This document shows, piece by piece, positions 9,548 to 51,730 of a stretch of DNA of 64,000 nt. Below the pieces are notes generated by a model. It did no database searches and was not told the DNA's origin. It saw only the letters and a list, made by a program, of their open reading frames with translations. Within the stretch, counting starts at the first letter, position 1; every line of letters starts with the position of its first letter. The position numbers were made by a program, and so were the translations under genes. The stretch is from an uncultured Actinomycetes bacterium. Its GTDB lineage: Bacteria; Actinomycetota; Thermoleophilia; Gaiellales; JAICJC01. The stretch is from positions 164,784 to 228,783 of the forward strand of contig CAWESH010000007.1 of assembly GCA_963811675.1 (NCBI GenBank), in the 5' to 3' direction.

Positions 9548-9624
9548 ATAATTCGGTGCCAGGCACCAATTATTCACCTCAGGCGGGGGTGGTGAATAAC
9601 GGTGCCAGGCACCGTTATTCACCA
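9544..9624. repeat. REP-like palindrome doublet (types A and B, 14-nt linker)
   Basis: GTGAATAATT(C)GGTGCC-A-GGCACCAATTATTCAC 9544-9577 and TGGTGAATAACGGTGCC-A-GGCACCGTTATTCACCA 9590-9624; same doublet recurs at 49042-49117. Confidence 0.9.
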
Positions 9625-47474: not shown

Positions 47475-48056
47475 GTGGCTGAAGAACAGGTACAGGAGCA
47501 CGAAGAGGAAGAGGAAGTCGAGTCCGCCGCCAGTGCCGCGGAGCGGCGCGCTCACCACGAGGCTGCTCGCCGGCTGGTGCGTCAGTATCCCGATGCGGCG
47601 TTGCGAATCCCGGCCAACAAAGTGGGCGAACTCGACGACGATGTGCTGCGGCTGGCCGAGCGCATGTGCGCCATCATGAACGACTCACATGGTGTGGGGC
47701 TGGCGGCGCCTCAGATCGGGGTGCTGCGGCGAGTGCTGGTGTATCGCCGCCGTGACGAGGACGAGCCGGTGGTGTTGATCGACCCCGAGCTGTCCGAGCT
47801 GTCCGAGGAGACCGAGACCGACACCGAGGGCTGCCTGTCACTGCTGGGCGGCGACCTGCTGGTGCCGGTTGAGCGGTCTTTGCGGCTGGTTGCCACCGGC
47901 CGCGACCGAGACGGCGAGGAGCTGCGGATCGAGGCTGAGGGCATGGAGGCGCGCATCCTCCAGCACGAGGTCGACCATCTTGACGGCGTACTGATCATCG
48001 ACCGCGCCGCCGAGGATGATCGCCGCGCCGCGATGCGCGAGCTGCGTCTCAGATAG
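47475..48056 (+). CDS. def: peptide deformylase with acidic N-terminal extension
   Basis: GVGLAAPQIG, EGCLS, QHEVDHLDG. Confidence 0.95.
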   Translation: MAEEQVQEHEEEEEVESAASAAERRAHHEAARRLVRQYPDAALRIPANKVGELDDDVLRLAERMCAIMNDSHGVGLAAPQIGVLRRVLVYRRRDEDEPVVLIDPELSELSEETETDTEGCLSLLGGDLLVPVERSLRLVATGRDRDGEELRIEAEGMEARILQHEVDHLDGVLIIDRAAEDDRRAAMRELRLR

Positions 48057-48060
48057 CGGC

Positions 48061-48945
48061 ATGACGTTCGGCTTTTTCGGCACCTCGCAGTTCGGTGCCG
48101 ACGCCTTGGAGCTGCTGCACGGCACTGCCGGCGTCGAGATCGCGTGGGTGGTGACCCAGCTCGATCGTCCTGCCGGACGCGGCCGTACGCCGCGACCGCC
48201 GCCGGTGGCGACTCGGGCACGCGAGCTGGGCTTGGAGCTGATCCAGACCGACAACGCCAGCGCCGCCCCGCCGGGGGCCGACGCGGCCGCGGTGGTGGCC
48301 TTCGGCCAGCTGCTGCGCGACCCGTTGCTGCACGCATATCCACTCTTCAACCTGCATCCGTCGCTGCTCCCGCGGTGGCGCGGGGCGGCGCCGGTGGAGC
48401 GGGCGATCATGGCCGGGGACGACACCACCGGTGTGTGCGTGATCGAGCTGGTGGAGCAGCTCGACGCAGGCCCGGTGCATGGGGTGGAGCGGTTTCCGAT
48501 CGCGTCGTCGGATGACGGCGGTGTGATTCGTGCCCGGGCGCTTGAGCTGGGCGTGCCGCTGCTGGCAGCCGCCCTGCTGGGTGAGACGACGGGCGTTGCG
48601 CAGGGCTCGGTGGGGGTCAGCTATGCCCACAAGATCACTGCGGACGACCGTCGCATCGACTGGTCGCGGCCGGCGCTGGAGATCGATCGGCTGGTGCGGG
48701 CGCTGGCCCCAGATCTGGGTGCCCGCTCACAGCTGGACGGCCGACCGGTGGTGATCTGGAGGGGGAGAGCCGGCGTGCTTGGCGGCGGGGGAGATCCAGG
48801 TCAGGTGGTGGGTTCCCCGCTCACACTGGCCTGCGGCGACGGCAGCTACGAAGTGCTCGACCTGCAACCGGCCGGCAAGCGCCGCATGACCACCGTCGAG
48901 TACCTCCGCGGCCTCCGCGATCCACCCAAACGCGCGGGTGAATAA
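48061..48945 (+). CDS. fmt: methionyl-tRNA formyltransferase
   Basis: FFGT..F, VVTQ.DRPAGRG, NLHPSLLPRWRGAAP, LDAG, QPAGKR.M; stop lies inside palindrome. Confidence 0.95.
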   Translation: MTFGFFGTSQFGADALELLHGTAGVEIAWVVTQLDRPAGRGRTPRPPPVATRARELGLELIQTDNASAAPPGADAAAVVAFGQLLRDPLLHAYPLFNLHPSLLPRWRGAAPVERAIMAGDDTTGVCVIELVEQLDAGPVHGVERFPIASSDDGGVIRARALELGVPLLAAALLGETTGVAQGSVGVSYAHKITADDRRIDWSRPALEIDRLVRALAPDLGARSQLDGRPVVIWRGRAGVLGGGGDPGQVVGSPLTLACGDGSYEVLDLQPAGKRRMTTVEYLRGLRDPPKRAGE

Positions 48946-49117
48946 CGGTGCCAGGCACCGCTATTCACGCTGCGTGGTCGAGGCGTTCGCGGAGGAAGAG
49001 TTCTTCGACCTCGTGAGCCGGCACCGGGCGGGAGACGAAGCGAATAATTGGTGCCAGGCACCAATTATTCACCCAGAGCGCCGGTGGTGAATAACGGTGC
49101 CTGGCACCGTTATTCAC
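48938..49117. repeat. three REP-like palindromes (B, A, B)
   Basis: 48938-48968 GTGAATAACGGTGCC-A-GGCACCGCTATTCAC; 49042-49070 GAATAATTGGTGCC-A-GGCACCAATTATTC; 49087-49117 GTGAATAACGGTGCC-T-GGCACCGTTATTCAC. Confidence 0.92.
48965..49038 (-). repeat. duplicated 3' end of the adjacent GGDEF/EAL gene
   Basis: 71/74 identical to 49114-49187 (offset 149); encodes the same VSRPVPAHEVEELFLRERLDHAA*. Confidence 0.92.
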
Positions 49118-50938
49118 GCGGCGTGGTCGAGGCGTTCGCGGAGGAAGAGTTCTTCGACCTCGTGAGCCGGTACCGGGCGCGAGACGATGAAGCCCTGTCC
49201 CAGGGTGCATCCGACGTCGCGCAAGAACCGCCACTGAGCTTCGGTCTCGATGCCCTCGGCCAGTGGCTCCATGCCGAGGTTGCGAGAGAGCTGGATGATC
49301 GCCACCACCAGCGCCGCGGACTCGTCGTCGTCGGGGAGGTCGCGCACAAACGAGCGGTCGATCTTGAGAGTGGTGGCGGGCATCTGCTTCAAGCGGGCCA
49401 GCGAAGAGTGCCCGGTGCCGAAATCGTCCAGAGCCAGCCGCAGCCCGGCTGAGCTGATCATGCGCAGCACCGCCTCGTTGTCGGGTGTCTGGCGCATCGC
49501 CGTCGACTCGGTGATCTCGATCAGGAGCTCGGTGGGGTCGACCCCGTGGCTTCGGATCAGCCGCAGCATGTTGCGAATCGCGGCCGGCTCCCACAGCGTC
49601 ACCGGGAGATTGAATGCGAGCCCGATATCGATCCCTCGCGACCGCCAGGCGACGTGCTGGCGGCACACCTGGTCGACCACCCAGTCGGTGATCGGCCCGA
49701 TCAGCCCGCAACGTTCGGCGAGGGGAATGAAGTCTGCTGGAGGAATCTCGGCGGACTCCGGGGGGCTGCCACCGGATCAGTGCCTCGGCACCGTGAATCC
49801 GACCGGAGCCGAGGTCGACAACCGGCTGGAAACGCAACACGAACTCGCGTGCCTCGATCGCGTGATGCAGCCGCGACACCATCGAGATCTCCTCCCGCGG
49901 GGGCAGTCGTCCGATGTCCAGCGCGCGGGCGGCACCGTCCCGCAGTCGCCGGCGGCCGATCGCGAGTCTGGCCTCGGCCAGCACGTCGTCGGGGGTGTCG
50001 GCGTCGCGCGGGTAGAGCGCGGTGCCGACTGACACCGTCAGGTAGACCTCCTCGTCCATGCATCGGAACGGGATTCGCAGCAGGTGCCGGAGGCGACCTG
50101 CGACCGCTTCCGCCATCTGGGCGACGTCGGCGGGGTGATCGTGCGTGCCTTGCGAGCCCTCCGGTGAGTCGGTGTCGGCCAGCAGCACCAGGAACTCGTC
50201 CCCGGTGTGCCGGGCCACCAGCTCGGCGCCCAGCGCGGCATCCCGTAACCGGTGCGAGAACGCCTTCAGCAGGCCGTCCGCGTTGGCGTGCCCGAAGCTC
50301 TCGTTGACCAGCTTGAAGTTATCGATGTCGATCAGCAGCACAGCGGCGGTGCGTGAGTACCGGCCCGACTCCCGCAGGGCCAGGTCGACCCAGTCGTGGA
50401 AGAGCGCGCGGTTGGGGAGCCCGGTGAGCTCGTCGTAGTGGGCCAGGAAGGCAATCCTGTCCTCGGCGTGACGGCGGGTGGTGATGTCGGCCCCGATCCG
50501 GCCGATACCGGTGACCTGACCGTGGGCGTCGACGGTGACGGTGTCATTCCACGCAACCACGCGATGCTCTCCCGAGCGAGTGATCAGCACGTTTTCCACC
50601 TCACTTGAGGCGGTGCCGGCGGTGAGCGTCGCCAGACGGCGGCGGTGAACGACCAGTCCAGAGCCGAAGGTGGCGTCCCAGTCGCGTCCCACCAGCTGCT
50701 CGCGCGGCCAGCCGGTGAGTTGCGCCAGCCGCTCGTTGGCAAATCCGATGCATCCGTTCACGTCGATGATGGCAACCAGCAAGGCGACGTCGGTCAGCAC
50801 CTGCGCAAACGGATCGGGAGGCGATTGGGCCGGGGGAGCGGCGTCGGCCATCCGCCGGGATCTGCGCATGAGCGCCCATGTCACCGGCACCGCGGCGAGC
50901 AGGAGCACAACGATGACTGGCAAGGCGTTCATGGTCAT
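49114..50938 (-). CDS. membrane-anchored PAS-GGDEF-EAL c-di-GMP enzyme (+1 frameshift in G6 run 49760-49765)
   Basis: N-terminal TM, PAS, DELTGLPNR, DIDNFK.VN, TGDEF, EAL, IEITES, DDFGTG.SSL, KIDRSF, AEGIET, QG. Confidence 0.92.
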
Positions 50939-50957
50939 GGAAGGGGCGTAACTCCGG

Positions 50958-50984
50958 TGATCGCCCACGACCGGGGACGGTTGA
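50958..50984 (-). promoter_or_regulatory. putative sigma28/WhiG-type promoter
   Basis: TCAA-N15-GGCGATCA versus consensus TAAA-N15-GCCGATAA, about 20 nt upstream of the GGDEF/EAL start. Confidence 0.4.
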
Positions 50985-51022
50985 GATGGGGAGCATCCAG
51001 CGAACCATCTATGGTCCCCGCA

Positions 51023-51730
51023 ATGTCCGCGTGGCCCACAGATGTGGTTGTCGCCCCGTCGATCCTGTCGTCGGACTTCGGCCGTGTGCGTGAGCAGGTC
51101 ACCGAGGTGCTGGAGGCCGGCGCTCGGGTGATCCACGTCGATGTGATGGACGGCCACTTCGTCCCGGTGATCACGTTCGGGCCAAAGATGCTGGCCGACA
51201 TCTCAGACGTGATCCACGAGCACGGTGCCTTCGCAGACGTTCATCTGATGGTGGAGCAGCCGGAGCGGCACCTGAGCCAGTTCGCCCAGGCAGGCGCCGA
51301 CAGCATCACGGTCCACGTCGAGACCTGCCCCCACCTGCACCACACACTTCAGCAGATCTCCGATCTCGGGTGCCGTGCCGGCGTCACGCTGGGCCCGGCC
51401 ACGCCGGTCGTCGCGATCACCGAGGCAGCGCGATATGCCGACGTGCTGCTGTGCATGAGCGTCAACCCCGGGTGGGGCGGACAGAGCTTCATTCCCGCGA
51501 CGCTCGATCGCCTGCCGCAGATGCGGCGCCTGGCCTCGGCCAGAGAAGGAGTGGTGGTCGAGGTCGACGGCGGTGTCCACCAGGCCACCATCGCCGACTG
51601 CTACCGGGCCGGGGCCAACATCCTGGTGGCCGGCTCGGGGATCTTTTCCACCCCGTCCCCAGGGGAAGCATTTGCCGAGCTGACCGGGATCGTTGCGGCT
51701 GCTGAGGCTCCGGCATGGGCGATCGCCTGA
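51023..51730 (+). CDS. rpe: ribulose-phosphate 3-epimerase
   Basis: APSILSSDF, HVDVMDGHFVP, DVHLMV, MSVNPG.GGQ, VDGG, VAGS. Confidence 0.96.
   Translation: MSAWPTDVVVAPSILSSDFGRVREQVTEVLEAGARVIHVDVMDGHFVPVITFGPKMLADISDVIHEHGAFADVHLMVEQPERHLSQFAQAGADSITVHVETCPHLHHTLQQISDLGCRAGVTLGPATPVVAITEAARYADVLLCMSVNPGWGGQSFIPATLDRLPQMRRLASAREGVVVEVDGGVHQATIADCYRAGANILVAGSGIFSTPSPGEAFAELTGIVAAAEAPAWAIA

Follow-up and report, generated by a model that had tools for sequence, protein, structure and literature searches.

A stretch of 64,000 nucleotides (nt) from the genome of an uncultured Actinomycetes bacterium (assembly GCA_963811675.1, contig CAWESH010000007.1, positions 164,784 to 228,783), called the window here, contains two convergent genes, fmt and a gene for a GGDEF-EAL protein. 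A cluster of short palindromes fills the interval between them, and the last 74 nt of the GGDEF-EAL gene are present twice in this cluster. Taken as a whole, the locus is probably a duplication of flanking DNA inside a cluster of palindromes that resemble repetitive extragenic palindromic (REP) sequences, that is, a scar of local amplification of the type described for REPs and for bacterial interspersed mosaic elements (BIMEs). It is very likely that the repeat is a flank duplication of the REP-cluster type. The further step, that a transposase itself made the joints instead of host replication at hairpins, is given somewhat less than an even chance.

Layout of the duplicated gene end

The features of the locus are as follows, with positions counted in the window.

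48016..48945, plus strand: fmt, methionyl-tRNA formyltransferase (Formyl_trans_N 1.3e-25, Formyl_trans_C 1.7e-19)
48938..48968, no strand: palindrome B1, the resident REP-like unit, subtype B (TGAATAAC...GTTATTCA), with one arm mismatch and a central A
48965..49038, minus strand: X1, a second copy of the EAL gene end (24 codons and stop), detached from the gene body (repeat and alignment)
49039..49041, no strand: joint, a 3-nt gap relative to the gene; AGC abuts palindrome A
49042..49072, no strand: palindrome A, subtype A (GAATAATT...AATTATTC), a perfect hairpin at the novel joint (arms 49042-49055 and 49057-49070)
49073..49086, no strand: spacer of the A-spacer-B composite, 14 nt, or 16 nt (CCCAGAGCGCCGGTGG) by the other count of the arm ends (family spacers are 15-17 nt)
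49087..49117, no strand: palindrome B2, a perfect hairpin with a central T, containing the EAL gene stop TGA
49114..49187, minus strand: X2, the true 3' end of the EAL gene, contiguous with the gene body (translation; EAL domain 1.1e-45)
49114..51157, minus strand: PAS-GGDEF-EAL gene (domain profiles), with a +1 frame change at about 49750-49765

A repeat search of the window identified a direct repeat, D1, with two occurrences (48937-49038 and 49086-49187; 102 nt, 95% identical, spacing 149). It consists of palindrome B and the last 74 nt of the GGDEF-EAL gene. The 47 nt between the two copies are not repeated and hold palindrome A and the spacer. The order along the locus is B1, X1, A, spacer, B2, X2, and the remaining gene, as an original prediction from the letters alone had read it. 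With gaps allowed, BLAST carried D1 leftward to about 48920 and 49067 (121 nt, 91%). The 74-nt sequence has exactly two copies genome-wide.

X1 and X2 differ at three of the 74 positions (48971, 49022, and 49031). The original prediction that these are all synonymous third-codon differences in the frame of the EAL C-terminus was confirmed, with no non-synonymous difference found. The three sites are four-fold degenerate and are variable among relatives. Translations of X1 and X2 end alike (...SRPVPAHEVEELFLRERLDHAA*). Their similarity runs on as GAGACGA[TGA]AGC and stops 0-3 nt short of palindrome A, in agreement with the predicted end of homology at this palindrome after a 3-nt gap. The palindromes B1 and B2 differ in the central base (A and T, respectively) and in one arm base, and hairpin self-complementarity is 93% for B1 and 100% for both A and B2. 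The left arm of palindrome A lacks its usual T at the joint (cGAATAATT). The TAA stop of fmt lies within the left arm of B1, and the TGA stop of the EAL gene lies within the arm GTGAATAA, in the right arm of B2.

The +1 frame change of the GGDEF-EAL gene adjoins a run of six C. The extra base is shared with one relative (G004) and is extra relative to two others (G002 and G005). Against G004, the C-terminal frame shows 30 synonymous differences and one non-synonymous difference, indicating purifying selection. An old pseudogene is less likely here than either an error of assembly at the homopolymer or a break that happened very recently. A 730-aa open reading frame (ORF), 48965-51157, that passes through both palindromes into X1 was rejected as a real product because the +1 frame change combines with the 149-nt offset to create it, and the EAL half is out of frame.

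The palindrome family and its putative transposase

The genome, referred to as G000, is a metagenome-type assembly of 2,466,131 nt in 23 contigs with 67.7% GC and 57.8% completeness. The palindrome core GGTGCCWGGCACC is present five times in the window, where 0.01 would be expected, and none of 100 shuffles reached five. Genome-wide there are 231 exact cores. Full palindromes number 220, with 106 of subtype B (TGAATAAC...), 47 of subtype A (TGAATAATT...), 42 of an AAAA type, and 25 others. The inner-stem differences between subtypes are compensated in both arms. There are 34 adjacent pairs at a spacing of 40-50 nt, and most of these are composites of A, a spacer of 15-17 nt, and B. When all 231 copies were listed, the arms were (G)TGAATAA / TTATTCA(C) with variable flanks, and no conserved GTAG or CGTC tag was seen in those flanks. 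An Rfam search gave only chance matches to miRNA hairpins, far under the gathering scores.

The arms carry TGA and TAA in two frames. The stop of a flanking ORF with coding-type GC content at third codon positions (GC3) falls within 118 of the 220 palindromes (17 on both sides), compared with 53 of 2000 random sites. The EAL gene keeps its stop because every palindrome arm carries both TGA and TAA. The original prediction had proposed an event that replaces a gene while regenerating its stop codon, and this part is not upheld, since any palindrome of the family brings a TGA or TAA.

The central base is the only asymmetric position of the palindrome, and it tracks local GC skew. The ratio of A to T is 95:40 at positive skew and 35:61 at negative skew (Fisher p = 5e-7). 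The family is thus handled in a strand-specific manner. On contig C7, which contains the window, 16 of 17 central bases are A, and the lone T is that of B2 (window 49102). Likewise, on contig C10 the lone T of 12 belongs to the joint palindrome of a further duplication described below.

Several other observations concern the family. A second composite in the window (9555-9613; a near-subtype-A palindrome, a 16-nt spacer, and B) has no flank duplication. At the intergenic site C10:48233 and its orthologous sites, subtype B is present in G000, G004, and G005, AAT/ATT in G002, ATC/GAT in G001, and no palindrome in G006. These switches of subtype change both arms together. Chimeric palindromes with arms of two subtypes were seen (e.g., C4:164487, C21:6598, C9:108567, and C21:29409). 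Orphan arms number 54, and 17 of these have a full palindrome no more than 30 nt away; short tandem arm duplications (C7:59328 and C15:117929) are among them. A second, related hairpin repeat (arms GTGCATAA / TTATTCAC, with a CTGCCAGGCA-like core) forms clusters beside family palindromes at C9:73.7-73.9 kb and C13:63.9-64.1 kb. At C23:60603-61583, a 286-codon minus-strand gene beside an apparent tRNA-gene end is bracketed by two subtype-A palindromes that have about 47 nt in common, flanks included. This gene is not a Y1 transposase by the Y1_Tnp search.

That search gave one match in the 57.8%-complete assembly, at C13:93639-93956. It lies in an ORF of 231 aa (C13:93303-93998) that scores 26.1 bits against Pfam Y1_Tnp (cut-off 23) and 60.7 bits against NCBIfam REP_Tyr_transpos (E 1.4e-16). 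HAH and RYIALNP motifs can be read by eye. The closest public relative of the protein, at 82% identity, is from an uncultured Actinomycetes bacterium. Two subtype-A palindromes flank the ORF (L021 positions 580 and 1374 around the ORF at 604-1299), and so the proposed check for a HUH/Y1 gene flanked by the motif came out positive. The bracket of transposase gene and palindromes is present at five of nine Y1 loci examined (G000, G002, G004, G005, and G006, all of one genus), and the subtype of the bracketing palindromes varies by species. The other four of the nine loci, which come from outside the genus (L013, L014, L016, and L019), lack the bracket. The original prediction of no recombinase in the window was also borne out for tyrosine recombinases. 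Three Phage_integrase matches (C7:137159, C7:259186, and C20:66440) are all outside C7:164784-228783.

In the IS200/IS605 family and its miniature derivatives, hairpins in single-stranded DNA are recognized by a Y1/HUH transposase, and orientation is tied to replication. The bias of the loop base in the palindromes suggests a similar, replication-tied orientation. Unlike in IS200/IS605 elements, the transposase gene is apparently single-copy here, and the hairpins alone have multiplied. No IS200/IS605-type pair of left and right ends with a TTAC-like target was identified. Three of the features expected of a REP sequence and its REP-associated tyrosine transposase (RAYT) were found, namely a short high-copy palindrome at or outside gene edges, a transposase that is single-copy against numerous repeats, and a transposase gene bracketed by its own palindrome. 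The palindromes are therefore predicted to be a high-copy REP-like family tied to a RAYT-type Y1/HUH transposase. The earlier suggestion of an enzyme acting in trans is partly supported, as this Y1 protein, whose activity is predicted from its sequence, may be linked to the recurrent process at the palindromes.

Recurrence of flank duplications and comparison with relatives

The 180 palindrome clusters of G000 were scanned by masking the palindromes and comparing the 400 nt on each side with themselves. Flank repeats of 61-171 nt were found at five of the 180 clusters. The order is the same at all five, with a resident B, the duplicated flank X, an A-type palindrome with or without a spacer, a whole or partial B, X again, and the rest. 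The five loci are given below with the duplicated flank, the identity of its copies, and the state of the inner B.

C7:213.7 kb (the locus described above): gene 3' end; 97% for the flank only, 71/74 over X; inner B whole
C23:30.2 kb: gene 3' end; 98.8%; inner B reduced to TCAC
C10:48.3 kb: 5' end of the ORF C10:48439-49551 (GC3 0.85); 89.5%; right arm only of inner B
C13:74.9 kb: intergenic; 98.4%; right half only of inner B
C7:9.8 kb: intergenic; 92.7%; inner B absent

An A-type or AAAA-type palindrome is present at each of the five joints, and no plain joint of X to B was found. No shared motif was seen at the five distal breakpoints. The idea that the window locus is one case of a recurrent palindrome-associated process is borne out by this common layout. 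The idea that the event is aimed at replacing a gene end is not, as only two of the five loci duplicate a gene 3' end; one duplicates a gene 5' end and two duplicate intergenic DNA. A search for other duplicated gene ends with a synonymous bias had also been proposed as a check. Four more loci with the layout are present, and the lone difference between the copies at C23 is synonymous. However, three of the five flanks are not 3' ends, and the copy at C10, the oldest, differs by 15 synonymous and 10 non-synonymous changes and is put out of frame by a 2-nt deletion. About four lineage-specific non-synonymous changes can be read from the alignment in the detached C10 copy. At C13 (74929-74961 and 75287-75319), two segments of 61 nt and 33 nt adjoin in the detached copy, and 215 nt separate them in the continuous one. 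After the duplication, one copy lost sequence by deletion or the other gained it by insertion.

A genome-wide self-BLAST for local direct repeats gave 40 rows, five of which are the flank duplications. A sixth row that spans palindromes (C23:60579) consists of two palindromes themselves. The other 34 rows contain no palindrome. Those inspected among them are a tandem repeat of 515 nt on C14 and two repeats of tRNA genes on C12. The remaining rows are, judging by coordinates only, tandem arrays or repeats of 72-83% identity that are probably intragenic. In the scan of the 180 clusters, repeats of 22-38 nt at C12:216013, C13:64004, C15:117564, and C23:78321 were set aside as too short, and C9:52.2 kb was set aside as a simple tandem array.

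The interval between fmt and the EAL gene was compared in the relatives.

G004 (about 92% identity to G000): fmt, palindrome B, an 11-nt spacer remnant, TCAC, and a single X
G002 (about 89% identity to G000): fmt, palindrome B, spacer, palindrome A, and a single X
G005, G006, and G003 (lower identity): no palindrome in the interval; 9-16 nt between the stops in G005 and G006

Palindrome B is at the matching position beside fmt in both G004 and G002. Because the relatives hold a single X, the duplication is specific to the G000 lineage, and the spot gains and loses palindromes. The relatives are single-copy at all three loci checked (this one, C10, and C23); for C10 and C23, each of the five relatives searched has just one copy. 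A comparison of relatives to see which copy matches which strain had been proposed. At two of the sites where X1 and X2 differ, all four combinations of states occur among X1, X2, G004, and G002, which is a mosaic. X1 and X2 are mutually nearest, with three differences between them compared to five or six to G004 and G002.

The 16-nt spacer of the locus is present, identical, in a composite at another locus of G004 (C24, about 293.1 kb). The assembled part of G000 lacks an equivalent of this G004 locus. Given the identical spacer, the A-spacer-B unit was imported and not formed locally. The possibility that the spacer is a copy of the end of fmt was rejected, since the spacer fits the spacers of the family and is identical to the one in G004; its match to fmt is only loose, while X1 and X2 are 96% alike. 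The two sides of the joint have diverged equally from G004 at third positions (0.142 in fmt and 0.149 in the EAL gene). Within fmt the divergence is a mosaic, ranging from 0.02 to 0.36 per 50 codons, which indicates frequent homologous recombination among lineages. At third positions, fmt differs from G004 by 0.02-0.06 in the first 150 codons and by 0.18-0.36 after that.

Origin of the joints and significance

In the favored view, the joints arose as a palindrome unit came in at the resident palindrome, since the A-spacer-B unit is imported and the family is handled strand-specifically. The precursor would have been fmt, palindrome B, and the gene end, as relatives still show. A second unit of the family, palindrome A with the spacer and possibly its own B, would then have arrived in the G000 lineage, and in that event the segment from the resident palindrome to 74 nt inside the gene would have been copied again. 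If one strand were cut at the foot of the resident hairpin, a host polymerase could extend the free 3'-OH through B and X. The incoming unit might then be linked by its 5' end to the extended strand and by its other end to the old B-X strand. The outcome would be B, X, A, spacer, B, X, and the gene body, with X1 left as a dead by-product. For BIMEs of Escherichia coli, integration and amplification in a manner like rolling-circle replication has been proposed (Ton-Hoang et al., 2012, PMC3333891). By analogy, the mechanism suggested here would combine the integration and amplification schemes given in the relevant part of that paper.

A number of results weigh against this reading. The published amplification model, as far as the cited part describes it, would by itself give an X-to-B joint without palindrome A, and so the incoming unit at the joint is an extension of the model. 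Two of the five joints are flush with the palindrome foot, and the other three carry 3-10 filler nt. The inner palindrome is partial at three of the five loci, where the right arm, the right half, or 4 nt are left. Such partial palindromes do not fit one fixed cleavage site and need secondary hairpin deletions or a replication-based origin. The direction from B to X matches the fork direction inferred from GC skew at four of the five loci, which is not significant. If X1 were a dead copy in simple decay, its differences from X2 would not be expected to be all synonymous. With regard to the enzyme, its REP_Tyr_transpos score falls short of the equivalog cut-off (80), and the PDB, searched by sequence, gave no match at E 0.01 or better. 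A G004 contig of 741,595 nt (55 palindromes in 44 clusters), scanned in the same way, has no flank duplication; this is uninformative, as only about 1.2 would be expected at the G000 rate of five per 180 clusters. No run in a public run index contained more than 0.08 of the sampled words. Contigs of four runs contained only fragments of relatives and collapsed palindromes, with nothing across 48988-49035, and are neutral on the assembly.

Host replication alone, through copy-choice or microhomology-mediated template switching at hairpins and with no transposase, is the main rival and appears rather unlikely overall. A nascent B-X strand would copy A-spacer-B elsewhere, return through the 31-nt homology of B, and copy X again. 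The return through B explains why the left boundary is in or at the resident palindrome at every duplication. Distal breakpoints with no shared motif are also in keeping with it, as are the variable breakpoints inside palindromes (loop centre, boundary of core and arm, or foot), the chimeric palindromes of two subtypes, the hairpin deletions that leave TCAC at C23 and in G004, and the fillers, including one of 10 nt (C7:9.9 kb) whose sequence recurs on the other side of the resident palindrome. For the variable inner breakpoints and the fillers, template switching gives the better account when set beside the transposase model. It leaves the first switch onto the foot of A without evident homology, however, and an A-type or AAAA-type palindrome at all five joints suggests an active incoming element. 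The loop-base bias and the conserved bracket of transposase and palindromes show strand-specific handling and also speak against it.

The original prediction preferred an integration or allele swap directed by the palindromes, in which the gene end of another allele is brought in, the stop is regenerated, and the old end is left behind. This now appears highly improbable, even though X1 and X2 differ solely at synonymous four-fold sites, the two mosaic sites show all combinations, and the single C23 difference is synonymous too. By rough arithmetic, the third-position divergence of X1 and X2 (3 of about 25) is near the 0.149 between G000 and G004, and the roughly 49 first and second positions are unchanged, although free drift of X1 over that time would have given about three changes (P about 0.03-0.06). 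The synonymous pattern is real but thin, with three sites. The features of an attL/attR pair made by an integrase are missing: there is no recombinase or cargo in the 47 nt between the repeats, and at three of the five loci the duplicated DNA is a gene 5' end or intergenic, not a gene 3' end. The swap also does not agree with the closeness of X1 and X2 to each other, with the equal divergence from G004 across the joint, or with the lineage-specific changes and the 2-nt deletion in the C10 copy. Since the mosaic divergence of fmt points to frequent homologous recombination, X2 could have been rewritten after the duplication, leaving only synonymous differences. An assembly artefact, in which two strain variants were strung together at the repeated palindromes, is likewise very improbable. 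The assembly is fragmented and incomplete, the copies differ at synonymous sites that look polymorphic, and no reads could be placed on the joint. Against this, the joint of X1 and A is a new adjacency that is supplied by no known arrangement in the relatives. In addition, the four other loci of the same layout, with copy divergence of 1% to 10%, indels, and a 215-nt difference between copies, would not come from strain collapse.

The locus was taken in the original prediction as the best candidate for an undescribed system. It is not one, because tandem REP units, and tandem units of the REP doublets called REPINs, that carry flanking DNA or gene fragments have already been published. In Pseudomonas fluorescens SBW25, REPINs occur as tandem repeats that include flanking sequences, in 16 clusters (Bertels and Rainey, 2011, PMC3116915). 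As in the part of that paper on these clusters, the units here consist of a REP-type element and flank, follow one another head to tail, and have a short piece of unrepeated DNA in between; this arrangement was found at the locus and at four further loci. Repeat-bracketed RAYT or RAYT-like genes and the insertion of new units in or beside existing ones are further likenesses. Unlike those REPINs as described there, the unit is a perfect palindrome of 29-31 nt and not a REP doublet, the unrepeated stretch contains a palindrome of another subtype, and the host is an uncultured high-GC bacterium of actinomycete type.

The cited part of PMC3333891 states that BIME units may take along ("sequester") "entire genes or gene fragments." The E. 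coli system resembles the present one in having two REP types with a short linker and a REP-flanked, single-copy Y1 transposase (TnpA-REP), and the nick, 3'-OH extension, and strand transfer that would add units are analogous in the model. It differs from the present family in that no GTAG tag is seen here, there are three subtypes with compensated inner-stem bases, and the enzyme here is a predicted one. The incoming palindrome at the joint is not required in the amplification scheme as cited. The REP superfamilies with GTAG or CGTC tags (Di Nocera et al., 2013, PMC3733652) are, in the portion of that article used here, also high-copy palindromes downstream of genes, with clusters reiterated together with flanks of variable length and REP termini that supply stops. 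In contrast to these, no tag was seen here, the arms are (G)TGAATAA, and the stops are TGA or TAA and not TAG. The article makes no mention of the lineage that hosts the present family, and the word Actinobacteria is absent from its text. The palindrome itself did not turn up in print, though its sequence string was not a search term. In the parts of these sources cited, tandem reiteration of REPs or REPINs with flanks, capture of gene fragments, and REP-supplied stops are all published.

The locus alone is a neutral scar and changes little. It is a clean example of how a family of the REP/RAYT type remodels gene ends in an uncultured high-GC lineage. The family supplies stops to about half of the adjoining genes, varies in subtype at a given site between species, and occasionally duplicates gene fragments. 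The mechanism by which REPs are disseminated is called unresolved in the cited part of Corneloup et al. (2021, PMC8266576). A more speculative and distinctly unlikely reading is that the five duplications are footprints of the REP insertion step, in which the incoming unit would be joined both to the cut resident palindrome and to a 3' end that had already been extended 60-310 nt past it, this end being either the cut end or the leading strand at a fork. If this is true, the lengths and polarity of the scars would report how, and on which strand, REPs spread. The anchored duplications of variable length, together with the replication-linked loop base, could serve as natural data on the spread of REPs.

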